Below, one piece after another: positions 3,764 to 51,927 of a stretch of 64,000 nucleotides of DNA. The notes beneath the pieces are model-generated. The model saw nothing but the letters and a program-made list of their open reading frames with translations, had not been told where the DNA came from and made no database searches. The first letter of the stretch is position 1, and the number at the start of each line of letters is the position of its first letter. Location: contig OZ251575.1 in the NCBI GenBank assembly GCA_965243555.1, positions 3,269,007-3,333,006 on the forward strand, given 5' to 3'. Source of the DNA: Spirochaetia bacterium. Its GTDB lineage: Bacteria > Spirochaetota > Spirochaetia > SZUA-6 > Bin103. The position numbers and the translations under genes were made by a program.

Positions 3764-3773
3764 CGCCGCCGGC

Positions 3774-4275: not shown

Positions 4276-4293
4276 CGGCGGGAGCGCCGGGCG

Positions 4294-22900: not shown

Positions 22901-25851
22901 CCCCGGCGCTCACCATTGCGGCAGGCGAGACGACCAGCACCGGCACGGTGACCGTGACCGCGGTCGACAACACGGCGGACGCGCCGGACAAGCAGGTGAC
23001 CGTCTCCGCAACGGTCAGCGGCGACAGCGGCGTGGCGGCCCCGGCGGACCTGACGCTGACCATCAAGGACGACGAGGCGGCGCCGACCGTAACGCTGGCG
23101 CTATCCCACGGCGCCATCGACGAGAGCGGCGGCGCGACGACGGTCACCGCCACGCTGAGCCATCCATCGAGCGCCGCGACGACGATCACGGTCCCGGCGA
23201 TGGAGCGGGCCTACACGGTGGGGACGGACGCGACGATCACCATTGCCGCAGGCGAGACCGCAAACGCGGCGGACGACGTGACGATCACGGCCATCGACAA
23301 CGACGTACGTAGCGGCGACCGCGCGGTGCCCGTGACGGGGACGGTCGAGAACAGCCACGGCGCGGGGACGGTGACCGGCGCGGCGCTCACCATCCGCGAC
23401 GACGACGGCGGAACCGGATTCGCGCTGAACGGCTGGGTGGAAGATCAGCAGTGGACCCAGGGCCAGCCGATCACGCCGTTCACCTTGCCGGCCGCGGTCG
23501 GCGGCAGCGGCGACGTGAGCTACGCGCTGGCGCCGGAGCTGCCGGCCGGCGTGAGCCGGGACGCTGACACCCGCGAGGTAACGGGCGCGCCGGCGGCGGC
23601 CCGTGCGGAGACCGAGTACACCTGGACCGCCACCGACAGCGTGGGCGCTACGGTGAGCGTCACGTTCACGATCGAGGTCGCCGCCAGTTCCGGCCAGACC
23701 GATACCCCGCCGCGCAGGCCACCGCCGCCGGGGGGCTCGGCTCCGCCCGCTGCCGCGGCGGCGGTTCCGGTCACGGTGTCGATCGGCGACGCGTCGATCA
23801 TGGAGGGCAACGGGACCACGGTCGAAGCCGAGTTCACGGTGACGTTGGACCGGGAGAGCCCGGTGCCGGTCACGGTGTCGTTCGTCACCAAGGACGACAC
23901 CGCCATCGCCGGGGCCGACTACGAGCACTGCGACGGCGTCGTGACCTTCGCGCCCGGCCAGACCAGGCAGATGATCACGGTGCCGGTGCTGCCCGACACG
24001 ACGGTGGAGGCGAACGAGGAGTTCATGGTGGCGCTGGCCGGGGAGGAGCACGTGCTGCTGGAACGGGAGGTCGCCCGCGGCCGGATCGGCGACAACGACG
24101 TGGCGCTGCTGGCGATCGACGACACCCGGGTCAAGGAGGGCGACCGCGGCGCGGCGGCGGCGTGGTTCGAGGTGCGGATGATCTCCAAGACCGAGCGGCC
24201 GGTGCTGCTCCGCTACGCGACCATGGACGGGACGGCGCGCGCGGGCCAGGACTACCGGGCGGCCGGCGACGTGCTGGTGTTTGCGCCGGGCGAGGCGGCC
24301 AAGCGGTTTGCGGTGACGGTGCTGGGCGACACCGAGCCGGAGGAGCACGAGACGTTCGGCGTGACCCTGTACGACGCCGAACAGCAGGACGCGAGCGCCG
24401 GGCTGGCCGCCGAGGGGACGATCGAAGACGACGACCGGGCACGCCTGCAGCGCGCGCTGCGGCGCGCCCACGCGGAGTTTGCGCGGGTGGTGGCCACCGA
24501 GGCGGTGGCCGTGATCGGGGAGCGGTTCGCGGCGGGTGGGGCGGCCGAATCGCAAGTTACCCTGCACGGCCAGCGGCTGGCGCCGACAGCGGAACAAGGG
24601 GCTCCCGCCACCGAGTGGCCGCCGGCGGCGGAGGACGGCGCATCAATGAGTCAGGTGCCGCTGGGCGAGTACCTGGCCGCGAGCTCCTTCGACCTGGTGG
24701 GGCCGGCGCCGGGACCGGAGTGGAGCATTTGGAGCCGCGGCTCACTCGGCTATTACGGCGGCGGGCAGAACGAACCGCAGAGCGCAACCTGGGACGGCGG
24801 AATCTACGGCGGCTATCTGGGAGCGGATATCCGAGTGGCGGATCCGCTGGTGCTGGGGTTGGCGGTGTCGTTCAACGCCGGCTCGATGGCGTATCAGGAG
24901 AGTGACGCCGGCGGCGCCAAGCACGAGGTGAACGTGGGCACGTGGCTTACCGGCGTGCTGCCCTACGCGCACTGGACGCCGGCGGAGAGCGTGGACCTGT
25001 GGACGCTGGCCGGGGCGGGACTGGGCGTCAGCGACGTAACCCGGAACCAGCACCGCTGGCAGACCAACAACCTGTTGTGGCTGGGCGCGGCGGGAGGCCG
25101 CGTAACCGTGTTGTCCGGGAACTGGCTGGACCTGGCGCTGGCGACGGACGGCTACTACGCCTCGCTGAGCGCGGAGTCGCAGGACGACGCGTGGCTGACG
25201 CAGGGCCTGGAGCCCGCCGGGGTGGGCCGCGTGCGTCTGCTGGCGGACGCGCGCTTCGACTGGCAGCTAGCGGCCGACTCGCGGCTGGGACTGAACCTGG
25301 AGGTGGGCGGCCGCTGGGACGCCGGCGCCGCCGCGCAGGGGTTCGGCGCCGAACTTGGGGGCGGTCTGGACTACCTGTACACCGCGCTGGGGCTGGGGGT
25401 GCGGGCGAACGGGCGCTTGTTGCTGGCGCATCAGGAGCGCGAGTTCCGCGACTGGGGAGCGAGCGCGGCGCTGACCTTCGATCCGGGCGCTCCGGGCCGC
25501 GGGCTGGCGCTGGCGGTGACGCCGGCGTGGGGGGCGCCGAGCAGCCAGGCGGCGGAGGTATGGAACGCGGCGCCGCTGGCCGCGACCACCGCCGGGGCGG
25601 CGCGCGACGGCGCCGGGCTGCGCCCGGACCGGCTGGACGCGGAGCTGAGTTACGGCATCGAGACGCCCGGCGCGGGGCTGGTGACCGTATACGGCGCCCT
25701 CTCCCAGGGTCCGCCGGACAGCACCGGCTACCGGGTCGGCAGCCGCCTGGCCCTCGGCGGGCTCAACCTCGACCTGTCAGCGGACCTCCGGGAACACCCC
25801 GGCAGTCCGCCCGACCACCGCCTCGCCCTCGCCGGCACTCTCCACTGGTAA
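4954..25851 (+). CDS. Giant (6965 aa) secreted repeat protein: signal peptide, Ig-like/He_PIG domains, ~110-aa D-x-D-x-DG modules, Calx-beta-like tandem array, C-terminal autotransporter-type beta-barrel
   Basis: Signal peptide 'RRSTTIAGVAAAAVLAALLCAAVPAAA|QS'. Repeated 'LP.ATGG.G...Y.L.PALP.GL......ISGTP......Y.W.ATD.DGD' (putative Ig). Canonical Calx-beta ('GTDY....GTLTF.PGETSKTVTV.V.GD...EPNETV...L......G.G.IEDDD'). Terminal ~375 aa alternate hydrophobic residues and end 'LALAGTLHW'. The start codon is uncertain (see findings). Confidence 0.9.
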   Translation: MHLGGGGGGGAAVIAARRSTTIAGVAAAAVLAALLCAAVPAAAQSDPLSFGSATVDSRLYDTGTAITPIVLPEAAGGTGAVSYTLAPATLPRGLTWTASTRTIAGTPSQVTAAATYTWTATDAGGVAVALTFSLQVWAPAGPAINGVDVLVETVNGVTKSNYQSGETIKLLLQYPEKVAVTGTPQLALDVGGRTRTAGYDAAETAELRQEWAGDTADVLAFAYTVRADDFDGDGAAVAADALRLNGGTIRTVAAATDVKLSLGSHAAASGGTVSAKMRVRDTAPSFSHAASAAGRSLARGVATSTTLPRATGGDGALTYTISPALPRGLALGSATATITGTPAASGATTHTLTAADADGDRAALGPFTITVAAANAPKPSALTIVPPVGFDGDYAAGEVIWAIVTFDRAVTITGAPQLALTIGAHVRQAAYSSISSDPDDISFKYTVTAADFDGDGISIGSAALTLNGGGITGAGDAAVAAARDLSAYDLANDGRYTVRDTQPAFGSASIGNKTYPTGTAVNESLPAATGGDGTVRYSLTPALPAGLAFDAGRRRIHGTPTAQAAGADYTYRATDGDGDGAALTFRLAVTSVPTVSGVTVSSRPASGSAYGVAETISVEVRFDQAVTVTTPNPSLELTVGSNARSAAFASKPNASTLRFSYRVQADDDDDDGIGIAAGALTLTGAGTLRDATGTRNANLALGSHAIAAAAGHQVDTPPIISGVAITSTPAGGNYAAGDVISVRLTFTELVFVRSDEPTVALTIGADTRTAAWHSGSGGSPSTHTFTYTVQASDFDGDGISIAAGAVTANGGFLTYSGSDDPFRQALVGLGSHAVTDDGDHRVRDTAPAFSAAVPAQHYVAGTAASLTLPTATGDGSISYELTSTLPGGLAYGSATRAISGTPQAAGAASEQTWVATDGDGDETALTFTITVASAAAPKVSALTFLSSPRTGDTYGAGEEIAVGLKFDESVTKTGTPRLALAIGARTRYANYYASPSSLTGHHHVFSYTVQGADRDADGIGIGASALELNGGSLAQSSDAGVAASLALGSFAVAAAGSHKVDGGANAAPAVRAVGIQSRPVAASGYAAGDVIRLSVGFTEALTVTGAPRLAIRIGTTTRQATFDRAELKSLHFRYTVLVSDDDANGISMAADALTLPAGATVRDAHGADAALGLGTRALANQLEHKVHTPPKVTGLSIVSTPQQAGTYTRGGVFTARVSYDQAVTVAGSPRLALTVGGQTRAATAAAGSGNAYVDFSYTVAAGDTDADGLGITGAALTLPTGATIRDAGATDAALGLSRYAATRYAAAKVDGSRTGLWPDFGVAAGPDLSMLTNRVVNYALHSSCGPLHVGCALPTSATGDAPLVYTVSPALPAGLSLSRSTAVLTGAATVAAPSTRHTLTVTDANGDTDAVTFTLAVVGARPTVRGVSFLSSPAADGTYARNEEIRVAVRFRRQGAAALAVTGAPRLALQVGGAARQAAYYGVSGDEVRFRYTVQAADRDADGVAVAAGALTLNGGAIRDAAGNAAVLGLGRHALSGQAAHKVDGGVTRAPSVAGVTITSRPATGDTYSRGETVEVAVRFSQGVGVTGSPRLALGIGSATRQAGYDRAGATSATQYFRYVVRQADVDADGLSIGSGALTLNNGAIRSNAGANAALALGSHAITNASNAKVNGALNSPAIVTGVAVTSRPATGDTFRIGEEIRVRVTFSKAVVAARRTFRQGNPGWPRLALTVGSHTRHAALKVSTQYTERAPASTTLEFGYTVPAGDYDGDGFGITDGALDVNLGGISRGGVAATLGLGSHAVSAAAYKVDGRRAAVSGVTITSRPSADNTYAAGEVIRVAVTFNLPIRVTATAPNVPALGLLVGSTTRQMAYAGAGANSIAFSYAVQAADRDADGVSVVSRGLSLNGAVIDTAANGNPAVTGLSGFSVQGGAGHKVDGSIRPPVVRSLLIGAPQRGSTFDRYEVIGINVKFSQGVTVTGTPRLSLVIGSSTKTLDLASASGSQLRFEYEVQAGDADGNGVDVPANSLALNGGTIRNQYGVNAALGHGSIRNYVTNASTPNVNGAANHPPVVVSAGFAGRPAGGVYGKGDAIDVVVNWGKPVTVTGTPQLALDVGSGTRQAGSHSGSQRYTRFRYVVVADDRDSDGIGFGSGALTLNGATITGPGGTTASLTLPAVAADANRRVDGRVLMQPAFTGTVSARTWVVGSAVSYALPAAVGARGAISYALRPALPDGLQFSAASRTISGTPTTVTALATYTLEATDGVTGAKGALSFSIEITANAAPVFIPNTFAAQVYVKDEAISPVALPAATGGNGALSYALTGPGAATTLTLPAGVAYTAPTGANTGGTISGTPTAVAAQASYTLTATDADDDQATLTFTLEVQDDAAPTFGAASVANQSWRRYKALTAFTLPAATGGNGPLTYTLSPALPAGAAKDASHRISGAPTVAMDATTYTWRATDRDGDRAEITFTITVADNSLPAFTGLAPTSYAWTRYKSVSGILPVALGGDPPLSYALSPALPAGVARAASPRAGAEPEEPVVDSHNRTLAGAPTAAMTRTAYAWTVTDADGDRATWSLAITVLDNGRPDFGAATIPDQSWTRRRAITAFTLPAATGGDGSVSYALSPALPSGVTKDAGHRVSGAPAAALAQTEYTWTATDGDGDQASLTFDVIVADRPQAALVLTPSTIAESGTGNAATVTATLDRAVSAATTVTVAAAAGTNAEAGDFTLSANKTLTIAAGDTTSTGAVTITAVNNADAELDKSVTVSGSVSNQDVDAPDDVTLTITDDDRPSTPTLFIDAPSVTEGGTGDANTLEWTVTLLPASTQRVQVGVAVNSTGTATVGTLRTRAQRGADHGFPPEPTLVFAAGVTTQTVPVTVYGDATPEPDETVVMELSNPSNASLGNATGTGTILDDDAPAVTLAVADNAIAENGGTTTVTATLKRAWSAATTVTVTAVAGAYTVGADATITIAAGETANAADSVTITAVDDAVDNVGDRAVTVTGTATESAHVTGAALTLTDDEATPEATLALSDATIDEHDGTNPGSATVTATLNRASSEAVTLTVAAAAGTNAAATDFTLSSANTLTIAAGETSSTGTVTVTAVDNTADAPDKQVTVSATVSGNSGVATPADVTLTIEDDEAAPTVALAVADASISENGGSTTVTATLSHASSAATTITVTAVSGAYTVGSDTTITIAAGETTNASDTVTVTSVDDAMDNVGDRSTTVTGTAANAQAAAESATVSVTGAALTLTDDEATPEAALALSPATIDEHDGTNTGSATVTATLNRASSEAVTVTVGAAAGTNAASGDFSLSRAKTLTIVAGDTSSTGTVTVTAVDNTADAPDKEVTVSAVVSGNSGVAAPSAVTLTIEDDEAAPTVALAVADSSISENGGTTTVTATLSHASSAATTITVQPVSGAYTVGADATITIAAGATSNAADTATITAVDDATDNVGNRSATVTGTAQNSHDVGAVTGAALTLTDDETTPTATLALSDATIDEYDGTNPGSATVTATLNRASTEAVTLTVAAAAGTNAASGDFSLSSAETLTIAAGDTSSTGTVTVTSVDNTVDAPDKQVTVSATVSGNSGVADPASVTLTIEDDEAAPTVALALADSSISENGGTTTVTATLSHASSAATTITVQPEAGAYTVGADATITIAAGETSNAPDTATITAVDDAIDNVANRTATVTGTAANAQAAAESATVSVTGAALTLTDDEGAPTATLALSDATIDEHDGTNPGSATVTATLNRASTEAVTLTVATTAGTNAVASDFSLSSAKTLTIAAGDTSSTGTVTVTAVDNTADAPDKQVTVSATVSGNSGVADPASVTLTIEDDEAAPTVALALADSSISENGGSTTVTATLSHPSSAATTITVQPEAGAYTVGADATITIAAGETSNAADTATITAVDDATDNVVNRSATVTGTAQNSHDVGAVTGAALTLTDDETTPTATLALSDATIDEHDGTNPGSATVTATLNRASSEAVTLTVAVAAGTNAAATDYNLSSAKTLTIAAGDTSSTGTVTVTAVNNTVDAPDKQVTVSATASGNSGVADPSSVTLTIEDDEAAPTVTLAVADASISENGGATTVTATLSHASSAATTVTVTAVAGAYTVGADATITIAAGETTNATDSVTITAVNDAVDNVGDRAVTVTGTAANAQAAAESQTVTVTGVALTLTDDETTPTATLALSDATIDEHDGTNPGASTVTATLNRASTEAVTLTVAATAGTNAASGDFSLSSAKTLTIAAGDTTSTGTVTVTAVDNTVDAPDKQVTVSATVSGNSGVAAPASVTLTIEDDEAAPTVALAVADAAISENGGTSTVTATLSHASSAATTVTVQPEAGAYTVGADATITIAAGETSNATDSVTITAVDDSIDNVANRSTTVSGTAQNSHDVGTVTGASLTLTDDEGAPTATLALSDATIDEHDGTNPGSATVTATLNRASTEAVTLTVAASAGTNAASGDFSLSSAKTLTIVAGDTSSTGTVTVTAVDNTADAPDKEVTVSAVVSGNSGVAAPSAVTLTIKDDEAAPTVVLAVADAMISENGGSTTVTATLSHASSAATTITVQPVSGAYTVGADATITIAAGATSNAADTATITAVDDATDNVGNRSATVTGTAQNSHDVGAVTGAALTLTDDETTPTATLALSDATIDEHDGTNAGSATVTATLNRASSEAVTLTVAAAGTNAASGDFSLSTTKTLTIAAGNTSSTGTVTVTAVDNTVDAPDKQVTVSAAVSGNSGVADPSSVTLTIEDDEATPTVALAVADSAISENGGTTTVTATLSHASSAATTITVQPEAGAYTVGADATITIAAGETSNAADTATITAVDDATDNVVNRSATVTATAQNSHDVGAVTGAALTLTDDEATPTATLALSPATIDEHDGTNPGSSTVTATLNRASSEAVTLTVAAAAGTNAASGDFSLSSAQTLTIAAGDTSSTGTVTVTAVDNTVDAPDKQVTVSATVSGDSGVATPSSVTLTIEDDEAAPKVTLVLSPSSISEDGGQATVTATLSHASSAATTVTVAAAAGAHTAAADFSLSANKVLAIAAGTTTSTGAVTISAVDDDDDAPNDKTVSVSATAANSHGAGNPNAVILTITDDDVDLKPTFGGAQVASRLWLTATVIPRLVLPRATGGDGTLTYTLSPALPSWLSRNGFLVTGTTPGDPTSQVEYTWKVEDEDGDEDSVKFLAAVIRPGDPPLLVNPPGIVVNTGDLPALALSSPRVTEGASGTTSALTWTVTLSKASTAQVTVKYADAGTGTAASGTDYAALSGGTLTFAPGETSKTVTVTVTGDGVDEPNETVKVSLSEPVNARLPVSAATGTGTIEDDDAAPAVTLAVADSAISENGGTTTVTATLSHASSAATAITVTAVSGAYTVGADATITIAAGETTNATDTATVTAVNDAIDNVGNRAVTVTGTAANAQAAADSATVSVTGAALTLTDDEATPEVTLALSPAAIDEHDGTNPGSATVTATLNRASSEAVTLTVAAAAGTNAAAGDFSLSSAKTLTIAAGDTSSTGTVTVTAVDNTVDAPDKEVTVSATVSGNSGVAAPSAVTLTIEDDDAAPAVTLVVADSAISENGGTTTVTATLSHASSAATTITVTAVSGAYTVGADATIAIAAGATSNAADTVTITAVNDAIDNVVNRSTTVTGTAANAQAAAESQTVAVTGAALTLTDDEGAPTATLALSDAAIDEHDGTNPGASTVTATLNRASTEAVTLTVEATAGTNAASGDFSLSSAKTLTIAAGDTSSTGTVTVTAVDNTVDGPDKQVTVSATVSGNSGVAAPSAVTLTIEDDEDAPTVTLAVADSAISENGGTTTVTATLSHASSAATTSTVTAVSGAYTVGSDATITIAAGETSNAADSVTIAAVDDAIDNVGDRTVTVTGTAQNEHDVGEVTGATLTLTDDEGAPEVTLALSPAAIDEHDGTNPGASTVTATLNRASTEAVTLTVAAAAGTNTVAADFALSDTPALTIAAGETTSTGTVTVTAVDNTADAPDKQVTVSATVSGDSGVAAPADLTLTIKDDEAAPTVTLALSHGAIDESGGATTVTATLSHPSSAATTITVPAMERAYTVGTDATITIAAGETANAADDVTITAIDNDVRSGDRAVPVTGTVENSHGAGTVTGAALTIRDDDGGTGFALNGWVEDQQWTQGQPITPFTLPAAVGGSGDVSYALAPELPAGVSRDADTREVTGAPAAARAETEYTWTATDSVGATVSVTFTIEVAASSGQTDTPPRRPPPPGGSAPPAAAAAVPVTVSIGDASIMEGNGTTVEAEFTVTLDRESPVPVTVSFVTKDDTAIAGADYEHCDGVVTFAPGQTRQMITVPVLPDTTVEANEEFMVALAGEEHVLLEREVARGRIGDNDVALLAIDDTRVKEGDRGAAAAWFEVRMISKTERPVLLRYATMDGTARAGQDYRAAGDVLVFAPGEAAKRFAVTVLGDTEPEEHETFGVTLYDAEQQDASAGLAAEGTIEDDDRARLQRALRRAHAEFARVVATEAVAVIGERFAAGGAAESQVTLHGQRLAPTAEQGAPATEWPPAAEDGASMSQVPLGEYLAASSFDLVGPAPGPEWSIWSRGSLGYYGGGQNEPQSATWDGGIYGGYLGADIRVADPLVLGLAVSFNAGSMAYQESDAGGAKHEVNVGTWLTGVLPYAHWTPAESVDLWTLAGAGLGVSDVTRNQHRWQTNNLLWLGAAGGRVTVLSGNWLDLALATDGYYASLSAESQDDAWLTQGLEPAGVGRVRLLADARFDWQLAADSRLGLNLEVGGRWDAGAAAQGFGAELGGGLDYLYTALGLGVRANGRLLLAHQEREFRDWGASAALTFDPGAPGRGLALAVTPAWGAPSSQAAEVWNAAPLAATTAGAARDGAGLRPDRLDAELSYGIETPGAGLVTVYGALSQGPPDSTGYRVGSRLALGGLNLDLSADLREHPGSPPDHRLALAGTLHW
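4962..4984 (+). repeat. Homopolymeric G tract, 23 nt
   Basis: Counted directly as 9+10+4 G between T4961 and C4985. It starts 6 nt after the only in-frame canonical start (TTG 4954) of the giant ORF. Confidence 0.98.
11521..12975 (+). other. Cluster of 5 consecutive putative-Ig (He_PIG / dystroglycan-cadherin-like) domains within the giant ORF
   Basis: Five ~85-100-aa units, each with 'LPAATGG(N/D)G.(L/V)SY.L.PALP.G.......(I/V)SG.PT......Y.(W/L).ATD.D.D'. Confidence 0.7.
13698..23410 (+). repeat. Tandem coding array of ~12 near-identical double units (A ~110-117 aa, B ~118 aa; 690/705-bp period) of Calx-beta-like domains, interrupted at ~19950-20985
   Basis: The junction 'TLTDDE..P..TLALS.A.IDEHDGTN' recurs 12 times. 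Equal-length 227-aa antisense shadow ORFs recur at 14517, 15912, 17307, 21111 and 21816, which shows the nucleotide-level periodicity. Confidence 0.9.
23761..24435 (+). other. Two canonical Calx-beta domains preceding the translocator region of the giant ORF
   Basis: 'IMEGNGTTVEAEFTVTLDRES...GADYEHCDGVVTFAPGQTRQMITVPVLPDT..EANEEF' and 'VKEGDRG...GQDYRAAGDVLVFAPGEAAKRFAVTVLGDTEPEEHETF...GTIEDDD'. Confidence 0.75.
24721..25851 (+). other. Autotransporter-like (type Va) outer-membrane beta-barrel domain of the giant ORF
   Basis: Preceded by a helical linker 'ARLQRALRRAHAEFARVVATEAVAVIGERF'. Contains 'WSIWSRGSLGYYGG...GGIYGGYLGADIRV...GLAVSFN' and dyad-repeat beta-strand patterns, and ends in an aromatic residue (...TLHW). 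Confidence 0.7.
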
Positions 25852-25862
25852 CGCACCCGGAT

Positions 25863-27083
25863 TCAGCCGGATAGGCCGAATTGCGGCCGGACTTGCCCGC
25901 TGCCGACGAATTGGGACAACAGCCGATAGTTCCGGCGCTCGTACCGAACCCTCCCGGCTATCGTGGCCGGATGGACCCGCAGGCGCTGGGCCAGGCTCGT
26001 GACCGCCAGCGGTGTCGGCGCCTCCCGCACCGTGCTCGTTTCCCAGACCGCGCGCGGGATGAGCGCCTCCGCGGCCCATGCGTCCGCCTCCGCCTCGCGC
26101 CGGTCTTCCATTGCCGCCTCCGGCGTGCGCAGTGACTGGTCGTCGACGAAGGTGGCGCCGGCATCGTCGGCCAAGTGGCGGCCGACGTGCGCGAGCTCGT
26201 GCAATAGACAGAACCAGAAGCCGTCAATGCGGTCGTAGCGCAGGGTCAGCGCTACCACCGGCCGGCCGTCGCCGAGGCGCAGCGCCGCGCCGTCGAGATG
26301 GGTGCGCGGCAGGTGCCGCTCAATGACCAGCGGGATGCCGTGCGCCGCCAAGTACGCTTGTGCGAGCCGCGGGCCATCCTCCTTGCAACTCAGCCGCGCG
26401 ACCCGCCGGAGGAAATCCGGGGTGACCGTTCCTGGCGTGTAGCTCGCTTCCGACGGTTTCCGATTGGCCGTCGCTAACACCTGCCAGCACCACGCCTGCA
26501 GTGCGTACCGGTCGGTCTTGGCGTTGGTGCGCAAGCGGTCGTTCTTGCGGTACAGGGCGGCAGGCGCCACGCCCCGGCCGCCGGCGCGCTCAATCAGATT
26601 GCCGAGCAGCTCCTCCGCCCGCCGCGCGAGGTCAGGGAGATTCGGAATCCATTGCCGCTTGGCCATTTCTCTGAGCGGAAACCGGCTCCACTCGATGTCC
26701 GCCAACGATTGCTCGGCGGCTGGCGCCGGCTCGCGCAGCAGCACGTCCGCCGGAATCCCCAGATGCCGGTGGAGGGCGCGCGCCATCGGCATGGTGATGG
26801 CGCGCTTGCCGGAGAGCACCTCCGACACCTTGGCGCGGCTGCCGATGTAGGGGACCAGATCGCGCGGCGTCAGCCCCGCCTGATCCATGCGGAACTCGAG
26901 CGCGGCGATGGGGCTCGGGGGCTCCATCGGCACGTGCTTGTTCTCGTAGGACTCGACCAGGTCGACCAGCACGTCGAGCTCCTCGCCCTCCGGGGTCCCG
27001 AACTCCGCATCCATCAGTTCATCGACCCGGGCGAGCGCGGCCGCATAGTCCGCTTCGGTCCGGATCGGCTTGACCTCGGCCAT
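25863..27083 (-). CDS. higA: HigA-type XRE antitoxin fused to an ImmA/IrrE (COG2856) HEXXH metallopeptidase domain
   Basis: The N-terminal ~120 aa match HigA ('IRTEADYAAALARVDELM...SRAKVSEVLSGKRAITMPMARALHRHLGIPADVLL'). The C-terminal ~285 aa carry 'FCLLHELAHVGRH'. The start lies 2 nt after the higB stop, preceded by GGAGGAGG. Confidence 0.85.
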   Translation of the reverse strand: MAEVKPIRTEADYAAALARVDELMDAEFGTPEGEELDVLVDLVESYENKHVPMEPPSPIAALEFRMDQAGLTPRDLVPYIGSRAKVSEVLSGKRAITMPMARALHRHLGIPADVLLREPAPAAEQSLADIEWSRFPLREMAKRQWIPNLPDLARRAEELLGNLIERAGGRGVAPAALYRKNDRLRTNAKTDRYALQAWCWQVLATANRKPSEASYTPGTVTPDFLRRVARLSCKEDGPRLAQAYLAAHGIPLVIERHLPRTHLDGAALRLGDGRPVVALTLRYDRIDGFWFCLLHELAHVGRHLADDAGATFVDDQSLRTPEAAMEDRREAEADAWAAEALIPRAVWETSTVREAPTPLAVTSLAQRLRVHPATIAGRVRYERRNYRLLSQFVGSGQVRPQFGLSG

Positions 27084-27085
27084 TT

Positions 27086-27379
27086 CTACACCTCCTCCAC
27101 GTTCACGGCGTCATATTCGGCGTGGGTCCCCACGAACCGCACGTAGACGGTGCGGTATCGATAGTTGATCTTCGCCACCAGCCGGTAGGCGTTGCCCTTG
27201 ACGTTGAACACCACGCGGTTGCCGGCGACGATGCTGGCGCTTGGATAGCGCGCCTTCACCTTGGCGGTCGTATCCCAATCTGCCTGCCGTACTTCTTGGT
27301 ACCAAGCGCGCAACGGCTGCTCCGCCTCCCGGTGACGCTCCCAGAACTCCCGCAACGTCCTCTTGGTGAGTACCCTCAT
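27086..27379 (-). CDS. higB: HigB-family (RelE-fold) mRNA interferase toxin
   Basis: 97 aa. 'VFNVKGNAYRLVAKINYRYRTVYVRFVGTHAEYD' closely parallels E. coli HigB 'VFNVGGNELRVVAMVFF...CYIREVMTHKEYD'. Confidence 0.9.
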   Translation of the reverse strand: MRVLTKRTLREFWERHREAEQPLRAWYQEVRQADWDTTAKVKARYPSASIVAGNRVVFNVKGNAYRLVAKINYRYRTVYVRFVGTHAEYDAVNVEEV

Positions 27380-27482
27380 TCAATATACTTCGCTCCCAAA
27401 ACCAATGCAAGTACCAGGATAGGAAATAGTGCCGCATTGGTCGAGGGCCCGCGGCGACCGGTCCCCCTTTGCTCTGCGCGGC

Positions 27483-30400
27483 CTACTCCGGTGACGGCCT
27501 CGTGGCCGGCGGCGCCGGCGCGCGGGGCCGCGTCGGCGGGCCGGCGCGGACGGGCTTCCAGGTCCTTGCGGCGTCTGCCGGGAGGCTGAGGGCGGCGGTC
27601 TCCGAGTAGAAGAACGTTTCGTAGTAGTCGCCGAGGCGTTCTTCAAAGTCCGGGTCGACTTCGTTGTGCCATTGCTTGAGCCAGGGCAGGTTTTCGTGGA
27701 TGACCGCGAGCAGCGGGGCGAGCCGGTCGGCGTCCCAGCGTTCCTTGATCTTGGCGTCGATGTAGTACGTGCCGACGGCCTGGCAAAGGGTCAGGGCGTC
27801 CCAGCCGGCCCAGCCGAGCAGGAGGGTGGGATCGTCGTCCCGGCTCATCGCCGGGAAGCTGACGAAGCGCTCCCTGGGCACGTCGAGGGCGCCGCGCAGG
27901 CGCCAGTAGCTCGGCTTGAGGAAGTCGGCGGCGCGGTACTTCGGCGGCGGCACCAGGTCCGCCGGCGGAGGGGCGTCCGCTTCCGTTTCGGCGGCGAGTT
28001 CGTCTTGGCGGCGCTGAGCGGTCCAGACCGCCTCCCAGTCGGCGCGCTTGGCGAGGCCGGAGGGCTTGTAGCGCTGCGCCGGCAGCGCCGGCACGTGCTC
28101 GCCAGCGACCAGGTCGGCGATCATCCGGGTGTGGTCGGGGTAGAGGTCTTCCCACAAGCGATCCGCGACCTTGTGGAAGGCCGCATCGTCGCCGGCCAGT
28201 ATGGCGAGGTCGCGGACGGTGGCGAGGCGCGGTTCCGGCCAGTAGTGCGGGGACTCCAGGCGGTCGAGCAACCAGCCGCGCAGGGCGCGCCGTTCCTGCT
28301 CCTGCCACGACTCGACGTTCCAGCGGCGCTTGTACTCCGGCCGTTCAAGCAGGCCGATGAAGCGGTGGGACTCGATCAGTTCGATGCGCCGCGCGACGAG
28401 GGCGCGGTAATCCTCCGGCCAGTGGGCGGGCAGGTCGGTGACCGGCGCGGAGCCGTGGCGCTTGAACCACCGGGTTTCCAGTTCGCCGGCCGCCATCCGC
28501 CGCGCCATGACGATCTCGAACGCCCGCTCGCCCAACGCCAGCGGCGGCGGTTCGGCGGCGCGGTCGCCGGGGCCGTTCGCGTAGCGGCAGTCTTCGTCGA
28601 GGACTCCGTAGAGCCGGTAGCACTCCCAGTCCAGTTCCTCCTGCAGGGCGATCATGCGCGCCAGGAGTCCGGCAGCCGCGTCTCGGTGCTCGTCAAGCTC
28701 CTCCCTCGTCAAGGGAAGGCGCCCGGCCAGTGACGCCGGCAGATGGGACTCCCGCTCGGTGCCGAGCCGATCGACTGCTTCCGACAATTCGACCGGATTT
28801 TCCGCCGGAAGCGGAATCTCCTTCACCTTCGTCGCGTTGAACTGAAAGAAGTTTTCGAACGTGTCGGTTGTTTGGCGTGCGCCCTTCGCATCGACCGTGC
28901 TTCCCTTGTTGTGCGATACTTGCTTCAGCCAGAAGCAAACCACGGAGCTATTGAGCGTGCCTGCCAGGGCAAGATGATCCGCTCCGCTCGCATCTATCGG
29001 CAGCTTGATAACGGGGGCGGTTTGGGAGAAGACTTTGCCGCCGCGGTCGAACGTGAAGTGATTGTGCGTGGCCACTTCGGCAAACGCGATTAAGCGGGGA
29101 TCGGCGTACCGTTTGGGAATCCAGCGATACCACGTCCACCAATCATCACCGGATTCGAGCCGGGTCTTGCCCCCGAACGACTTCATTCCTCCAATCGTAG
29201 TACGGTATCGCCACAGGTATTTTCCCCATGCACTCTCACCGTCGTACGCGAGGGGTTCGTTATCGCTATCGTACGGCACGAGCGCAACCGCTGATCCTTC
29301 ATAGGACCAGTCGCGGATCAGCTCGCCGACAACGTAGCCGCGTACCAACCCGGAATCCACGAGCAAGCGTCGAAACAGGTCCGCCGGCGCCACGAATGCA
29401 TCGTCGGTTCCGGTAAAGCTGGCGGGACCAATTGAAGTTGCCGCGTTGCCGAGACGATTCCGGTTCCGCTCCAACCGGAGCTTGAGCTCGTTCGCCAACG
29501 TGTCGGACACCGACCACGGGTGGCCGGCGAACGTGGCTCGAGGGACGTCAGCTACGTCAATCCATTCGTTGCCGCTGCCGGGTTCTTCTGCGTGGGTCAG
29601 GATTGACCGCCAGACCTTCCCCTCCTCCGGCTTCGCGGGAGGCGTCGGCTCGCCGCGGCGACCCATCACCACGCGCACGGCGGGCCGATCCGGAGCACGA
29701 TTGCGGCCGACGAGAATCACCGTCGGCGTGCCGTGACCGGGGATGTACGCGCCCGACGTGTCGATGACGTGGGTCAGGTCGACACTTGGGAAAAAGGACT
29801 CGATCAGCTTCCTGCCGAACTCGCGCTTCATGAACGAGTTGGCCGTGATCTGGCCAACGTAGCCGGCCGCGCCGCTTCGCCCGCCGGGGAGCGCCAACTC
29901 GAACAGTCGCTCGGCAAACGGAACGCTCATCGCGTACTTCATGTAGCAGCTCGGGTAGCGCGACCGATACAGTTGCCGCACCGCCGGGTCCTTCGGCGTG
30001 ACGTAGGGCGGGTTCCCTACCACGGCGTGGTAGTGCTGGCCGAGAATGCGGTTCAGGTCATCGAGGTCCTCGGACCGGAAGGCGTGGGAGAATTGGGAAC
30101 GGCCGGCGAGCTGCTGCTCCGCGCCGCTGCCCAGGTCCAGCTCGCCGAAGCGGCGGCCGTGGAGCAGGCTGTCGCCGACGGCTACGTTGATCTCGAACGG
30201 CGGGGCGTCCTCCAGGCGCTCGATGCCGCTCGCCCGCAGCGCCGCCAGCGCCAGGCGGAAGCGCGCGATCTCCGCCGCGAACGGATTGACGTCCACGCCG
30301 TAGACCGCGCGCAACGCGCGCTGCACCCGCTCGCACACCGGCGCGCCGGCTTTGCGCCACCGCTCAAGCAGCCGGTGGAAGGCGCCGAGCAGGAAGTGGC

Positions 30401-31115
30401 CGGAACCGCAGGCCGGATCAATGAGCCGGGTGTCCTCCAGCCCGAACTCACAGAGCGCCGGAGTGAGCGTGCGCTCCAGGATAAACTCCTCCACGAACAC
30501 CGGCGTCTGCAACAGGGCGTAGCGCTTCTTGGCGTCCTCGGAGAGGTCCTGGTACAGGTCGCCGAGGAAGCGGGTGTCCCAGGTGGGATCGGTAAAGTCG
30601 TGGTGCAGCAGGTTGGTGTCGGGGTCCACCAAGCGCCAGAACCACAGCAAGTCGCGCGCGGCGTCGCCGGAGATGCCGAGGCGCCACACCGGGTTGTGGC
30701 GCCGGTCGTAGAGCTTGGCCAGCGCGGGCAGGCGGGCGACCGAGGAAAAGCAGTGGAGCAGGTAGTCGCGGAAGGTAGCGGTGGGATGGTCTTGGAAGTA
30801 GAAACTCTGGCCTTCGGCGGCGTCCCGGTCGCGGGGGTGGGGGCCGCTGATCAGGGGTTCGTCGATCAGCCGGTTGTCCTCGATGAAACGCACGAACACG
30901 CAGCCGAGCAGCCACGCGACGGAAGCCTGGGTCAGTTCGCCGGCGCGCCAGACGCTGAAGGTCGCCGCGGTGCGCTCCGCCTCCCGCGCCGCCCGGTACT
31001 CAGCCTCCAGCGCGGCGGCCATCTCCGGCACGCTGGCAGCGCGTTGGGCCAGGTCCCGCTCCAGCAGCCGGAGCTGCCGCCGCAGGTCGCCCACCAGCGC
31101 CTGACGATCGATCAC
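27483..31115 (-). CDS. PglX-like large (1210 aa) N6-adenine DNA methyltransferase (BREX/Pgl-type), without partner genes
   Basis: GTG start. Motif I '[15 protein letters not shown]' and motif IV '[12 protein letters not shown]'. The N-terminal helical region '[38 protein letters not shown]' is what I recall for PglX-type enzymes. Size is typical of PglX. Confidence 0.75.
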
Positions 31116-31266
31116 TTCACGTCCTTGGCCGGCCGCGGCAGGTCGTGCCGCGGGTCGGCGAGATGCCGGAACGAGTCGGGAACGAACCTGTCGAGCGGCG
31201 CTGCCGGACCCACGGGGCGCGAGTATAGCGCGAACCCGGCAAGCAGGTCGGCGGACCGCCGGCGGT

Positions 31267-31296
31267 TTGACGGCGGCGGCGTTGCGTCGTTACTCT
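31267..31296 (+). promoter_or_regulatory. Possible sigma70-type promoter for trpS (TTGACG - 18 nt - TACTCT), implying a very short leader
   Basis: TTGACG at 31267-31272 and TACTCT at 31291-31296, with the ATG at 31308. The -10 element is weak. Confidence 0.3.
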
Positions 31297-31307
31297 GATA
31301 GTGCGTC

Positions 31308-32354
<1,047 letters not shown>

Positions 32355-37807: not shown

Positions 37808-39175
37808 GTGGGGACGATGGGCGATGACTGGAAACAGCGCGTGCGCGATCCGGTGCACGGTCTCATCGTGTTCGGCGGGCGCGACGATCGCGGGAACGAG
37901 ATCGACCGGATCGCTTGGCGCCTGCTCGACACCAGGGAGTTCCAGCGTCTGCGCCGCATCCGCCAACTTGGCTTCGCCGATCTGGTCTATCCCGGCGCGA
38001 CCCACACCCGCTTCGCCCACAGCATCGGCGTCTACCACGTAGCGCGCCGATTGATCGCCGTGATTGCGCGCCACCGGGGATCGGAGCACGATGGCGACCG
38101 CGCGCGCGTTGCGCTCCTGGCGGCCTTGCTGCATGACGTCGGGCATGGGCCGTTCAGTCACGTGTTCGAGAGCGCGGCCAAGGCGGTGATGAAACAGACC
38201 AGACGACACGAGGAATGGAGCGCCGAAATTGTCCAAGGCGACACCGAGGTCAACCGCGTGCTGCGCGACGTCGACGAGCAACTGCCGGACCAGGTCGCCA
38301 CGCTGCTCAAGGAGGAGGAGGCGAAGGACATCTACTCCGCCGTCGTGTCCAGCCAGTTCGACGCCGACCGGATCGACTACATCCAACGTGACCGGATGAT
38401 GAGCGGCGTCCAATTCGGCCACGTCGACAGCGAATGGCTGCTCGATTGCCTGCAGGTCGGTTCGATCAGCGTCGGCGCCTCCGACTACGTAACGGTGCCA
38501 TGCATGTATCTCGGCGCCAAGGGGCTGGCAATTGCCGAGGAATATCTGGAGGCGAGGTTCCGGCTCTACCGGACGGTATACGTGCACAAGACGACGCGGT
38601 CGGCGGAGAAGATGCTGGAGGCTTTGTTGCGGTCGGCGGCGTCTTCGCTGCGGGGGAGCTGCCTGGCCCAGCGGGAGCCGGTGTTGCGGTATCTCACGGC
38701 GGAGGGCCCGGCGCTCGACGCGTACCTGCGGCTCGACGACGCGGCGATCTGGGCCGCGTTTGCCGAATACGCCGCCTGCCCGCAGCCTCGCGTCGCCGAG
38801 CTGGCCGCCCGGTTGCGCGATCGCAACCTCTACAAGTGCCTGGAGATCGGATCGCTGGACGAACGTAAGGGCAACCTGTACGAGCGGTTCCGGCGGCGGT
38901 TGCAAGAACGCAACCTCGCGTGGAGCGACGAGCTGCTGTTCGATGACTCTACGATCGCGCCGTACACCTGGTACAACTTCAATGAAGCATCGGCGCTCAG
39001 CAAGGTTCTCGTGAAGGTCGACGCGACGATGGACGAGCCGCGGGACATCGCCGAAGTCTCCGCGGTCGTGACGGCGCTCCATGACGAAGGGGTCAGCCGG
39101 GTGCAGCGCGTCTACGCACCTGACAGGGAAAAAAGGGCCGAACTCTACGACGTCCTCAAGGAGGTGAGAACGTGA
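37808..39175 (+). CDS. SAMHD1/EF1143-like HD-domain dNTP triphosphohydrolase family protein
   Basis: 'VRDPVHGLI...TREFQRLRRIRQLG...THTRFAHSIGVYHVA', 'LLHDVGHGPFSH' and 'FDADRIDYIQRDR' give the H...HD...D metal-site pattern of SAMHD1-type HD hydrolases. Alternative start ATG 37817. Confidence 0.8.
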   Translation: MGTMGDDWKQRVRDPVHGLIVFGGRDDRGNEIDRIAWRLLDTREFQRLRRIRQLGFADLVYPGATHTRFAHSIGVYHVARRLIAVIARHRGSEHDGDRARVALLAALLHDVGHGPFSHVFESAAKAVMKQTRRHEEWSAEIVQGDTEVNRVLRDVDEQLPDQVATLLKEEEAKDIYSAVVSSQFDADRIDYIQRDRMMSGVQFGHVDSEWLLDCLQVGSISVGASDYVTVPCMYLGAKGLAIAEEYLEARFRLYRTVYVHKTTRSAEKMLEALLRSAASSLRGSCLAQREPVLRYLTAEGPALDAYLRLDDAAIWAAFAEYAACPQPRVAELAARLRDRNLYKCLEIGSLDERKGNLYERFRRRLQERNLAWSDELLFDDSTIAPYTWYNFNEASALSKVLVKVDATMDEPRDIAEVSAVVTALHDEGVSRVQRVYAPDREKRAELYDVLKEVRT

Positions 39176-45863: not shown

Positions 45864-46838
45864 TTACCACTCCTCTATGGTGACGGCCCGCGGCCGGCCG
45901 CCGTCCGTCCGGCGGGCGCCGCCGTGGTTGAACTCGGCCGCCGCGTGATAGCCCATGTACTTGAGCCGTTCGTTCATCGCCGCGGTCTCGATCAGGATCC
46001 AGATCGGGCGCCCGGGCCGCACCGGAATCAGCACCTCGCGCACGCCCACGCCGAGATACTCCACGCTGTGCTCGTCGAGTCCCAGCCGGTCGTAATCGGT
46101 GGCCGGGTTCCAGTCCTCCAGCCGCACCACGAGTTGCACGTTCTTGGATTCCAGGACCGCGCCCACCCCGAACAGATAGGAGATGTTGATGATGCCCAGA
46201 CCGCGGATCTCCATGTGGTGAGGGCTGGCATCGCGCGGCCCGCGGCCGTGCAGCGCGTTCCCCACCAGGCGCAGCTCTACCAGGTCGTCGGCCACCAGCC
46301 GGTGGCCGCGCTCCACCAGCGCCAGCGCGGCTTCGCTCTTGCCTACGCCGCTGGGGCCCACGATCAGCACGCCCATGCCGAACACCTCCAGCATCACGCC
46401 GTGCTCCTGCGCCGCCGGGGCGAACATGAGCGCCAGATTGCGCACCACGCGCGAGGTGAAGTCAGCGGTGCTCAACGGCGTCTGCAACACCGCCCGCCCC
46501 GCCTCCTCGGACAGGCGCAGGAAGTCCTCCGTAGGGTCGATGCCATGCGTAAATACGCTGCAGGGAAGGTCATAGCAAAACATCTCGCGCAACGGTTCGG
46601 TGCCGCCCTCGGCGGCGAGCTTCAACAGGTAGGCGCTCTCGCCGCGCCCGAACACCTGCAGGCGCTGGTAGGCGAAGTTGTCGAAGAAGCCGCCGAGGGC
46701 GAGCCCGGGCCGGTTCAGCTCCGCGCCGTGCAGCAGCGCCGTGAGCCCGCGGCGGCCGCCGACGCAACGCAACTCCAGCGGCTCGTGCTCCCTGGGGTCG
46801 AGTTGGAGCAGGTCGAGAACGGTAATCCGGTGCGCCAT
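45864..46838 (-). CDS. hprK: HPr kinase/phosphorylase
   Basis: Walker A 'GVLIVGPSGVGKSEAALALVERGHRLVADD' and 'EIRGLGIINI' are HprK signatures. Confidence 0.95.
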   Translation of the reverse strand: MAHRITVLDLLQLDPREHEPLELRCVGGRRGLTALLHGAELNRPGLALGGFFDNFAYQRLQVFGRGESAYLLKLAAEGGTEPLREMFCYDLPCSVFTHGIDPTEDFLRLSEEAGRAVLQTPLSTADFTSRVVRNLALMFAPAAQEHGVMLEVFGMGVLIVGPSGVGKSEAALALVERGHRLVADDLVELRLVGNALHGRGPRDASPHHMEIRGLGIINISYLFGVGAVLESKNVQLVVRLEDWNPATDYDRLGLDEHSVEYLGVGVREVLIPVRPGRPIWILIETAAMNERLKYMGYHAAAEFNHGGARRTDGGRPRAVTIEEW

Positions 46839-46864
46839 TCCGCCGCGCGCGCCGCGTTCGCCGC

Positions 46865-47206
46865 TTAGCCGCGCGACGCGGCGCGGTGCGGATCGCCGTG
46901 CGAGGTAATCCGGCTCTTTTCCTTGGTAACCTTGGCGTGGACCTTGTCGAACAGCCGGTCAACGGCCTCGATCAGTTCGTAACTGCTCGCCTTGAGATGG
47001 GTGATTGCGCCCCACCTGAAGTGCAGCGACGCCTCGGCGTGGAACAGGTTGCGCTCCCGGGTGAGGGTCACGCCCAGATCCACCAGGTAGTCGCGCGCAA
47101 AGGCGAGCCGCTGCACGCCCCGGTCGAGATGCTGGCGCGGCTGCTCGCCGAGCTCGAAGTGAACCGCTTTTACTTGAAGCTGCATCGTTGGTTGCTCCTG
47201 GGTCAT
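46865..47206 (-). CDS. hpf: Ribosome hibernation promoting factor (short HPF/RaiA type)
   Basis: ~105-113 aa immediately downstream of rpoN. 'MQLQVKAVHFELGEQPRQHLDRGVQRL' is HPF-like. The start may be the internal ATG at 47185. Confidence 0.85.
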   Translation of the reverse strand: MTQEQPTMQLQVKAVHFELGEQPRQHLDRGVQRLAFARDYLVDLGVTLTRERNLFHAEASLHFRWGAITHLKASSYELIEAVDRLFDKVHAKVTKEKSRITSHGDPHRAASRG

Positions 47207-47217
47207 CAGAATTTGTC

Positions 47218-48600
47218 TCAGGTACGGCGATAGGAACTGTCGATAGCCAGCTCCTTGCGATACTTTGCCACCGTGCGCCGGGCGATCTTCACTCCCTTTT
47301 CGGCGAGGATCTCGGCGATGCGGCTGTCGGACAGCGGCTTGCCGGGCGCGCCGCCGGTCGTGCCGGCGCCGGTGACGATCTCGCGGACCATCTCCTTGAC
47401 GCCGTTCTTCGAATAGCGGGAACCCTTGGAGCCCGCTCCGGAGATCGAGTTGGTAAAGAAGTAGCGCAACTCGAAGACGCCGAACTCGGTTTGCACGTGC
47501 TTGCCGTTGGCCAGCCGCGAAACCGTGGCTTCGTGGACGCCGACCACGGCCGCCACGTCCTTGAGCGTGAGCGGCACCAGGTACTTGGGGCCGCGGCGAA
47601 AGAACTCGCTCTGCACCGCCACCACCGCGGCGGTGACCTTGCGCAGGGAGCGGTTGCGTTCATCGATGCTGCGCATGAACGAACGCGCGTCCTGCAGATG
47701 GCGGTTGACGAACTTCTTGTCTTCGCGGTCGGGGTTGTTGCGGCTCAGTTGTTCGAACAGCCCGTTGATTCCCAGTACCGGAATCTGCTCGTCGTTGAGC
47801 AGCACCCGGAGCTCGCCGTCGACCTGCTTGACGGTGATGTCCGGGGTTACGTAGCGCACCTGTTCGGCGCTGTAGTTGCGTCCCGGAATCGGATCCAGCG
47901 TGCGCACGAAGTCCAGGATGGCGCGCACCCGTTCCTCGGAGACGCCCATACCGCGCGCGATCTCGCCGAGCTTGCCCCGCTCCGCCGGTTGCATGTAGGT
48001 GCGCACCAGGTCGGCGCTGCCCGGTTCCGGGCGCGGGTGCACCCGAATCTGGGCCAGCAGCGACTCGGTAAAGTCGCGGGTGCAGCAGCCGGGTGGGTCG
48101 AAGCCCTGGATCATCTCAATCAGCTTGCGCAGCCGCGGCGCCGGGGCGGCGGGGTCCAGGATCTCCGGTTCCTCCAGCGTGAACCCGTTGTGGTCCAGGT
48201 TGCGAATCAGCAGCTCGCCGAGCTCGAACTCCGGCGGGGTGAGCGGCTGCAGGCGGAGCTGCCACAGCAGATGCTCCTGCAGCGTCTCCGGGCGCGCCAG
48301 CGCCCCCTCCAGGAACATGCGCTTGGCGTCGTCGTCCGCGCCGCCGCGGCTGCCGTTCAGGTAGCCGGGGTCGGAGGACTCGGCAAAGACGCTCTCCTCC
48401 GCGGTGGCCTCGGGACCGGTGTCCAGGGAGACGGTGGAGTTGTCCTCCAGCACCTCCAGCGCCGGGTTGCTCATCAGCTCCTCCCGGATGGTGACCTGCA
48501 GCTCCTGGACCGGCAGCGCCATGATGCGGATCGCCTGATAGAGCTGCGGGGTCATCTTGAGCCCCTGCACCTGGCGCAGATCGGTCCGTTGCGACAACAT
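47218..48600 (-). CDS. rpoN: RNA polymerase sigma-54 factor
   Basis: 'LKMTPQLYQAIRIMALPVQEL' (region I) and the C-terminal RpoN box 'ARRTVAKYR'. I prefer the start at ATG 48600 (MLSQR...); the tracked ORF extends to 48615 and would overlap the upstream methylase. Confidence 0.95.
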   Translation of the reverse strand: MLSQRTDLRQVQGLKMTPQLYQAIRIMALPVQELQVTIREELMSNPALEVLEDNSTVSLDTGPEATAEESVFAESSDPGYLNGSRGGADDDAKRMFLEGALARPETLQEHLLWQLRLQPLTPPEFELGELLIRNLDHNGFTLEEPEILDPAAPAPRLRKLIEMIQGFDPPGCCTRDFTESLLAQIRVHPRPEPGSADLVRTYMQPAERGKLGEIARGMGVSEERVRAILDFVRTLDPIPGRNYSAEQVRYVTPDITVKQVDGELRVLLNDEQIPVLGINGLFEQLSRNNPDREDKKFVNRHLQDARSFMRSIDERNRSLRKVTAAVVAVQSEFFRRGPKYLVPLTLKDVAAVVGVHEATVSRLANGKHVQTEFGVFELRYFFTNSISGAGSKGSRYSKNGVKEMVREIVTGAGTTGGAPGKPLSDSRIAEILAEKGVKIARRTVAKYRKELAIDSSYRRT

Positions 48601-48604
48601 GGCG

Positions 48605-50470: not shown

Positions 50471-50622
50471 GGACCACCACCATAGCAGAGCCGCCGGCCC
50501 GGTGCGACTCCGCGCCGCCGCGCCGCCGCGCCGCGGCGCCGTGCGCGGTGCTTGACCGCGAACGTATGCACCCGTATGCTGCCGGAAGGTCGGGTGGCGC
50601 CGGTGGGTACGGTCATCATCAC

Positions 50623-50787: not shown

Positions 50788-50887
50788 GCCCCGCGCGTCG
50801 CGGCGCCGGGAACAGGATCGCGCTCCCCGGAGATACTTCATGCAACCTGCTGCTGCCATTCGCCACCGAAATCCGATCCTTCCTCTC

Positions 50888-51914: not shown

Positions 51915-51927
51915 ATGCCGGCCCGCG

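Follow-up and report, generated by a model that had tools for sequence, protein, structure and literature searches.

When a large DNA methyltransferase gene lies directly in line with a toxin–antitoxin-like pair, do the three genes form one functional unit, or have separate modules come to rest side by side? The question is posed by a 64,000-nt stretch of DNA (hereafter the window) from a Spirochaetia bacterium (assembly GCA_965243555.1, contig OZ251575.1, positions 3,269,007-3,333,006 of the forward strand). In it three minus-strand genes follow one another with gaps of 103 bp and 2 bp, an arrangement that the list of open reading frames (ORFs) bears out as originally described: a gene for PglX, the methyltransferase of type 2 bacteriophage exclusion (BREX) systems; higB; and a gene, here called B, coding for a HigA-like helix-turn-helix (HTH) domain joined to a metallopeptidase. 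The original prediction had considered a single unit of methylase and HigBA-peptidase, a decayed BREX remnant, or a self-sufficient orphan methylase. We favor instead, with a probability of about 0.68, two independent modules that are chance neighbors in a variable slot between a DUF402 gene and trpS of a sponge-associated bacterium with ~70% GC. The features at the center of the argument are:

27483-31115, minus strand: PglX gene, 1210 aa, GTG start
27380-27482, minus strand: spacer of 103 bp, with a promoter-like element and an inverted repeat
27086-27379, minus strand: higB, 97 aa, HigB-like, of the PD-λ-2 component A type
25863-27083, minus strand: B gene, 406 aa, HigA-like HTH plus ImmA/IrrE (M78) metallopeptidase, of the PD-λ-2 component B type

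Surveys centered on either component speak for their separation. The family alignment of PglX yielded 572 relatives in the GTDB species representatives, from which the best 80 loci were kept with 10-kb flanks; neither HigB nor B lies within 10 kb of PglX in any of these 80. Scoring of partners by tblastn in 82 PglX loci (the 80 plus two further loci, L006 and L007) recovered PglW in 70 (in each directly upstream of PglX), PglY in 59 and PglZ in 53, with most of the misses attributable to short flanks. On the side of the pair, 85 loci of B (80 from metagenomes and five found by context look-up) have HigB directly upstream without exception, with a modal spacing equal to the 2-bp gap of the window; PglX is beside B in none of the 85, a count in which only 25 loci have at least 4.2 kb of upstream sequence.

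The closest relatives of the locus show how the two came to be neighbors. As had been noted, the block sits between a giant adhesin gene and trpS, and the slot that it occupies is delimited as follows:

4294-4908, plus strand: DUF402 gene, conserved left boundary of the variable slot by synteny with loci L003 and L005
4954-25851, plus strand: giant surface-protein gene, 6965 aa, convergent with B and 11 bp from the B stop
31308-32354, plus strand: trpS (Pfam tRNA-synt_1b, E 6e-77), divergent from PglX, conserved right boundary of the variable slot

Three loci (L003, L004 and L005) have the gene order of the window on both sides, namely dcd-gltA-histidine kinase-response regulator-family 2 glycosyltransferase (GT2)-htpG-trpS on one and DUF402-MGMT-…-Mur ligase on the other, and in them higB-B abuts trpS with no PglX. 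The gene order of window positions 1-4800 recurs beyond higB-B in L003 and L005, and the ~3.85-kb difference from these two loci (31256-27400) consists of the PglX gene only, without scars of pglW, pglY or pglZ. The interval from DUF402 to trpS (4294-31308) is variable: its cargo in the window is the 21-kb giant gene, higB-B and PglX; in L003 and L005 the same slot holds higB-B and an N6_N4 DNA methyltransferase, with or without a DDE transposase and a PhdYeFM antitoxin. The giant gene is 96-98% identical in L006 and a further locus, L168, and absent from L003 and L005. In the sister locus L006, a 95%-identical PglX stands between trpS and the same giant gene, while higB and B codons ~120-406 are lost; the first ~119 codons of B, its HigA part, are retained. 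The A-B cassette occurs alone in an unrelated context in L001, at 89% nucleotide identity.

Only L168 retains the complete trio. It was considered as an independent recurrence and rejected as such: identity to the window is 96.7% in its right flank and 100% in its HigB, so that it is the same locus by descent. Its 4-bp overlap of PglX and higB reflects a PglX tail that reads through into the higB promoter. At the other end of PglX (L168:3095-3100), the start codon marks the exact point from which L168 is homologous to the window, and 4 bp separate it from the end of a polyprenyl synthase gene; this junction could be either a rearrangement or a metagenome assembly chimera. In L006, the 129-aa HigA-only ORF (L006:13853-14242) looks constrained (ω, the ratio of non-synonymous to synonymous rates, is 0.20 against the window), and its synonymous divergence of 0.17, above that of the flanks, suggests that it may be a different allele.

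The 103-bp gap carries signals that go with higB rather than with PglX. A predicted -35 element (TCGACC, 27444-27439), a 17-nt spacer and a -10 element (TATCCT, 27421-27416) are followed by the inverted repeat TACTT (27413-27409)/AAGTA (27390-27386), the presumed operator of the HTH. Both the promoter-like element and the repeat are kept upstream of higB in L001, L002, L003 and L005, all of which are without PglX, and in L168. They are visible by alignment only: a consensus promoter and terminator scan of 25700-31400 found nothing and missed the higB element. Judged from this conserved upstream region, higB-B looks like its own transcription unit, in which the two elements would serve as promoter and operator.

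Because each occurs without the other and higB has a promoter-like element of its own, we regard PglX and higB-B as separate cargo of the slot. As the loci compare, their adjacency arose once, in one narrow lineage comprising the window, L168 and, ancestrally, L006; the co-occurrence of PglX-like genes and higBA that the original prediction had proposed to survey does not extend beyond it. A more general link between higB-B and DNA methyltransferases was also entertained and rejected, since the N6_N4 methyltransferase is found at only 4 of the 85 B loci, three of them of one lineage.

What, then, is each module? The HigB protein matches Pfam HigB_toxin (PF09907, E 4e-33) and, over its full length (1-97/97), the PADLOC profile PD-Lambda-2_A (PDLC03979, E 4e-40), and it is detectably related to E. 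coli K-12 HigB (5IFG_A, E 1e-6). B matches PD-Lambda-2_B (PDLC03982, E 2e-143) across positions 1-402/402, whereas the Pfam families HTH_3 and Peptidase_M78 are both weak on it. Homology to E. coli K-12 HigA (5IFG_B, E 4e-8) spans residues 7-112 of B. An AlphaFold2 model of B (predicted local distance difference test score, pLDDT, 74.5) matches HigA (6JQ4) with its N-terminus and the M78 proteases CapP (7T5T), PprI (8SLM) and IrrE (3DTI) with its C-terminus. The HExxH motif of the latter, at residues 295-299 (26187-26201), is invariant in the homologs aligned, and both genes have evolved under purifying selection (ω 0.22-0.27 for higB and 0.17-0.25 for B). These profile matches place the pair in a family already described and linked to defense, PD-λ-2 A/B, a membership that the original prediction had missed although its identification of HigB and of a HigA-ImmA fusion, like that of PglX, is supported by NCBIfam, Pfam and PADLOC.

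PD-λ-2 was described as a three-gene anti-phage system of E. coli (Vassallo et al. 2022, PMC9519451). Its component A is HigB-like, and its component B combines a HigA-like HTH with a peptidase; component C is 'related to a P4 phage antitoxin' and is needed for defense against λvir (PMC9519451). The window pair shares with the E. coli system the full-length A and B matches and the A-then-B order, but it is without component C, as are the relatives checked. No PD-Lambda-2_C is among the PADLOC matches listed for the window proteins scanned (for PglX, the best 25 of 43; the giant gene was outside the scan), nor does PADLOC find one beside B in L001, L003 and L005, and there is no room for a C gene next to B because its stop is 11 bp from the giant gene. 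With classical HigBA modules (E. coli K-12; 5IFG, 6KML) the pair has in common the gene layout, in which the RelE-fold toxin gene comes first and is followed after 2 bp by the HigA HTH, the homology in sequence and fold of HigB and of the first ~115 residues of B, and an inverted repeat in the promoter region, as for HigA autoregulation. It differs in the ~290-residue C-terminal extension of the antitoxin, with its intact HExxH metallopeptidase. That C-terminal half has the M78 fold of the CapP/CapH, IrrE(PprI)/DdrO and ImmA/ImmR switches, being most like CapP 7T5T and PprI/IrrE 8SLM and 3DTI; these switches pair the protease with an Xre-type HTH, whereas in B the two form a single chain, which is coupled with a HigB homolog.

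The large gene is, by its profile scores, a full-length BREX type 2 PglX. It exceeds the cut-off of the equivalog-level NCBIfam family NF033451 (BREX_2_MTaseX) with 1551 bits against 400, the 1210-aa protein scores 1600 bits with the PADLOC PglX model PDLC02529, and Pfam finds Eco57I, MmeI_Mtase and DUF7008 (E 1e-138). Motifs I and IV of the methylase, which had been recognized from the sequence, are found at residues 233-239 (DPACGSG) and 368-371 (NPPY) and are invariant in a 26-sequence PglX alignment. Downstream of its N-terminal region, the gene can be divided as follows:

30003-30419, minus strand: methyltransferase (MTase) catalytic core from motif I to motif IV, by motif positions and alignment
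28776-29705, minus strand: variable central segment, the presumed target recognition domain (TRD), PglX residues ~471-780, least conserved part of the family alignment
27543-28655, minus strand: DUF7008 C-terminal region, PglX residues 821-1191 (Pfam PF22654, E 1e-138)

A published domain map of PglX/BrxX proteins (PMC12839542) has the TRD at a position matching the central segment; it likens the N-terminus of PglX-type proteins, a helical bundle, to the N-terminal domain of M.EcoKI, and proposes the N-terminal domain as an interface with the BREX complex. The domain order is that of the S. coelicolor SCO6627 type of PglX: a helical N-terminus, an N6-MTase with NPPY, a TRD and DUF7008. A 73%-identical homolog, in L007, sits in a canonical PglY-PglZ-PglW-PglX locus. 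The setting here is different, since BREX type 2 is normally a six-gene system and the window has no pglW, pglY, pglZ, brxD or brxHI within its 64 kb, PglX being a single-gene difference relative to the syntenic relatives. The host differs too: with σ54 (rpoN) encoded in the window and the locus carried by sponge metagenomes, it is probably an uncultured symbiont of sponges rather than an actinomycete. A G-tract phase switch, present in S. coelicolor pglX, was considered and rejected for the window gene, which has no homopolymer tract of 6 nt or more. The AlphaFold2 model of the sister-locus PglX (P0121; pLDDT 48.9, predicted template modeling score 0.29) was too poor for a fold search.

Several observations bear on whether this PglX is still in use. 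Three genomes have the ORF of 1210 codons intact. Compared with L006, the window copy differs by 60 non-synonymous and 60 synonymous changes (ω 0.32); since L006 is without higB or the peptidase, the purifying selection acted in a lineage that lacks both. Constraint differs by part: ω is 0.19-0.24 for the N-terminal (0.24), MTase and central parts (codons 1-820) and 0.53 for DUF7008, against 0.11-0.18 for trpS, htpG and GT2 in the same comparison. In L168, the central ~310 codons have been replaced in frame, with 34-49% amino acid identity there against 84-96% on either side, and the stop codon is lost such that the ORF reads 23 codons into the higB promoter. The TRD of the window resembles those of L007, L010 and P0123 (71-81%). 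Residues 101-300 are 93-97% identical to PglX within the BREX-2 locus L169. Further, the locus is present in four sponge metagenomes, where read depth over the N-terminal/MTase and C-terminal parts of PglX is 3-9x that of the flanks, and the central segment has flank (single-copy) depth and is absent in run X7; this difference implies that the constant parts are multi-copy in these communities and the recognition segment allele-specific. Together these patterns indicate that PglX is live and not decaying.

Solitary PglX genes of this kind have arisen more than once. In a tree built on the constant regions, the window, L006 and L168 stand beside the BREX-2-type locus L169, which has PglX in duplicate; the solitary L008 and L009 stand beside the canonical L007, and the solitary L010 beside the canonical L170. 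The topology suggests at least three solitary origins in one subclade and none among ~70 more distant loci. A 4.60-Mb chromosome of ~70% GC labeled as a Spirochaetia metagenome-assembled genome (OZ251573.1) carries at least four PglX genes or fragments, including L008 and L009, which are 93.5% identical over the ORF ±45 bp only. A solitary PglX is also present on chromosome OZ241863.1. The neighbors of the solitary copies are unrelated to one another. Nothing points to PglX being a mobile element whose ends are defined, there being no convincing terminal or flanking repeats or conserved non-coding DNA around the copies, whose homology is confined to the ORF ±45 bp. As to the two-PglX locus itself, L169:1545-23651 encodes two full-length PglX proteins, a 1028-aa N6_Mtase, a TIR/ORC-Cdc6-like protein, GmrSD genes and PglY; PglZ is on this contig as fragments only.

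The gene identities and layout, the finding that each part can be present without the other, purifying selection and the replacement of the TRD lead us to infer the following biochemical roles. The first module would be a solitary BREX-2 PglX paralog with a helical N-terminus, a γ-class N6-adenine MTase, a swappable TRD and DUF7008, retained because it recognizes and methylates specific DNA sequences; recombination with other PglX copies appears to exchange its recognition segment. The second would be a self-standing operon of two genes, with a promoter and an operator of its own, representing the A+B core of PD-λ-2 without component C; it would encode a homolog of the HigB-type ribosome-dependent RNases and a HigA antitoxin/repressor joined to a CapP/IrrE-like M78 metallopeptidase. 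As CapP and IrrE suggest, this peptidase probably reacts to a cue of stress or infection, such as damaged or single-stranded DNA, and would thereby shift the balance between HigA and HigB. This picture of the second module is tentative and has one finding from E. coli PD-λ-2 set against it: there, B is toxic alone and A neutralizes it, the reverse of the classical HigBA polarity (PMC9519451).

How do the alternatives fare against two independent modules? A single three-gene unit, in which toxin would be released when methylation or the antitoxin is attacked or the pair would buffer PglX toxicity, draws on the co-directional and tightly spaced genes, on the trio being kept in both the window and L168, on S. 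coelicolor PglX behaving as a toxin (PMC4365076) and on the N6_N4 MTase beside higB-B in L003-L005. The combination is nevertheless missing from all 80 PglX and all 85 B loci, the two trios are one locus by descent, L006 keeps PglX under selection without the pair, higB has its own conserved promoter-like element and operator, and the N6_N4 enzyme is confined to the few loci named above; we hence consider such a unit, which the original prediction had proposed on condition of conserved adjacency, highly improbable. Some weight does lie on the other side of the balance: the consensus scan found no terminator in the 103-bp gap, so that read-through from PglX into higB-B is possible, and a lineage-specific functional link is possible too, with all three adjacency genomes sharing one ancestor. 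The reading of PglX as a decaying remnant, the last gene of a lost BREX-2 locus with no current function, fits the lack of partner genes within 64 kb, the relaxed constraint on DUF7008 with its variable C-terminal tail, and the lost stop codon in L168. It is weakened by the clean ~3.85-kb difference without scars of the partner genes, by the intact ORF and catalytic motifs, by the strong constraint on the N-terminal, MTase and TRD parts and by the in-frame replacement of the TRD, and we think it quite unlikely. Less probable still, and the least so of all, is an MmeI-like stand-alone restriction-modification enzyme of type IIG/IIL, with cleavage and methylation combined. The PADLOC model REase_MTase_IIG (PDLC03617) does match over the full length with 1062 bits, the MTase core is related to those of MmeI, DrdV and orphan γ-class MTases such as CamA (Pfam MmeI_Mtase and Eco57I), and like these enzymes the solitary gene would combine recognition and methylation in a single polypeptide with TRD-driven change of specificity; but the PglX models score higher, residues 1-190 match no Pfam nuclease-domain family and the N-terminus of such proteins is described as an M.EcoKI-like helical bundle (PMC12839542), no nuclease domain is recognizable by family profile, and the closest relatives are BREX-2 components rather than restriction-modification enzymes, the same architecture being embedded in ~70 canonical BREX-2 loci.

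If PglX is live and independent of higB-B, the choice narrows to how it acts. Our tentative preference is that it may supply an extra or alternative specificity in trans to a BREX-2 core (PglW/Y/Z) elsewhere in the genome, because its residues 101-300 are nearly identical to those of the BREX-2-embedded PglX of L169 and because BREX-2 loci with two PglX genes exist. This is supported by the type 1 enzyme BrxX, which shows no activity by itself, in vitro or in vivo, and depends on BrxB, BrxC and BrxZ (PMC11842806), and by S. coelicolor PglX, whose toxicity when PglZ is missing persists in ΔpglW or ΔpglY strains (PMC4365076). Three observations tell against action in trans: no BREX-2 core was seen in the same genome as any solitary PglX; no PglZ is listed for the 4.60-Mb and 4.56-Mb chromosomes that hold L008-L010 or for the sister contig, in a search that missed two positive controls; and some or weak stand-alone activity in vitro has been reported for S. 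coelicolor PglX (PMC4365076) and E. coli BrxX. They feed a near-equal, if in itself somewhat unlikely, alternative, under which PglX methylates an asymmetric host motif without any BREX partner, for epigenetic regulation or protection against foreign restriction, with its specificity altered by TRD swaps. Such an orphan would agree with the three or more solitary origins in unrelated contexts, with the 4.60-Mb chromosome that has four or more PglX genes or fragments and for which the search listed no PglZ, with purifying selection and with the weak activity in vitro of the lone proteins. The dependence of BrxX on its partners and the toxicity of PglX without PglZ argue against it, as does the strong conservation of the N-terminal domain, the proposed BREX interface, both in ω and in its identity to BREX-2-embedded PglX; the missed controls, moreover, make the PglZ negative weak evidence for stand-alone function. 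A more speculative extension, which we consider improbable, is that solitary PglX genes are dispersed multi-copy specificity cassettes whose TRDs are exchanged by gene conversion, also with BREX-2 PglX, all serving one core. It would accord with the multi-copy constant regions with single-copy TRDs, the mosaic TRDs, the genome with at least four copies, the two-PglX locus and the repeated solitary origins. Were it true, one BREX core would gain several rapidly changing specificities, analogous to the type I hsdS shufflons.

Since the coupling of a methylase to a toxin–antitoxin–protease module fails, no new kind of defense system is indicated by this locus. Each half has its own interest. The two-gene form of PD-λ-2, usually without C, is by far the commoner in environmental genomes, which bears on how that system is defined and detected. 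On the PglX side, one BREX-2 subclade repeatedly turns solitary, stays under selection and swaps its recognition segments; as the PglX of the systems studied either is toxic when PglZ is missing or needs the BREX complex for activity, the solitary live copies pose a testable question as to how PglX functions outside its canonical locus and how BREX specificity diversifies.

The scanned neighbors of the block are housekeeping genes. A census covered all ORFs with coding-like GC content at third codon positions (GC3); Pfam and/or PADLOC scans were run on the majority, among them every larger ORF beyond the block, and those outside the scans sit in the conserved syntenic flanks. The ORF list and the scans uphold the earlier statement that no brx/pgl partners are in the window and that PglX is locally an orphan: no BREX/Pgl gene besides PglX is found in the 64 kb, neither PglW kinase nor BrxD ATPase nor BrxHI helicase; the scans give no PADLOC or Pfam match to a PglY/BrxC ATPase; and PglZ is absent both from the window and from the 10-kb flanks of the sister locus L006. 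The only ORFs of more than 700 aa with coding-like GC3 are PglX and the giant gene. The scanned neighbors include trpS, htpG, the GT2 glycosyltransferase, a histidine kinase, an HD protein, gltA, uvrC, holA, hprK and rpoN. Of the lower GC that had been reported for the block, a dip is present (63-70% in 1-kb windows against 70-75% elsewhere), but it is modest, with PglX at 67.6% and higB-B at 68.0% overall and the core genes trpS-htpG likewise at 67.6%. The GC3 of PglX and B (0.85-0.86 against 0.92-0.94 in the neighbors) appears to be a better sign of foreign origin than the dip.

Further observations concern other parts of the stretch. The giant gene has a regular series of ~225-aa antisense ORFs of high GC3, which points to long internal tandem repeats, and its ortholog in L006 carries He_PIG and Calx-beta domains or repeats. 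A second defense-like islet lies ~20 kb from the block, at 48605-53263. It includes a type II N6-adenine MTase (Eco57I/N6_Mtase/TaqI_C; PADLOC MTase_II, 606 bits), next to which is a 51% GC patch with two ORFs of no family (50888-51427 and 51328-51732, both on the minus strand), followed by an AAA_14/DUF4143 ATPase, matching the PADLOC candidate system PDC-S01. The HD-domain protein at 37808-39175 (HD plus HD_assoc_2), in a stretch of ~65% GC, has a weak PADLOC dGTPase match (E 2e-9). Finally, rpoN (σ54) and the HPr kinase gene lie within 45864-48615 in this ~70% GC genome.

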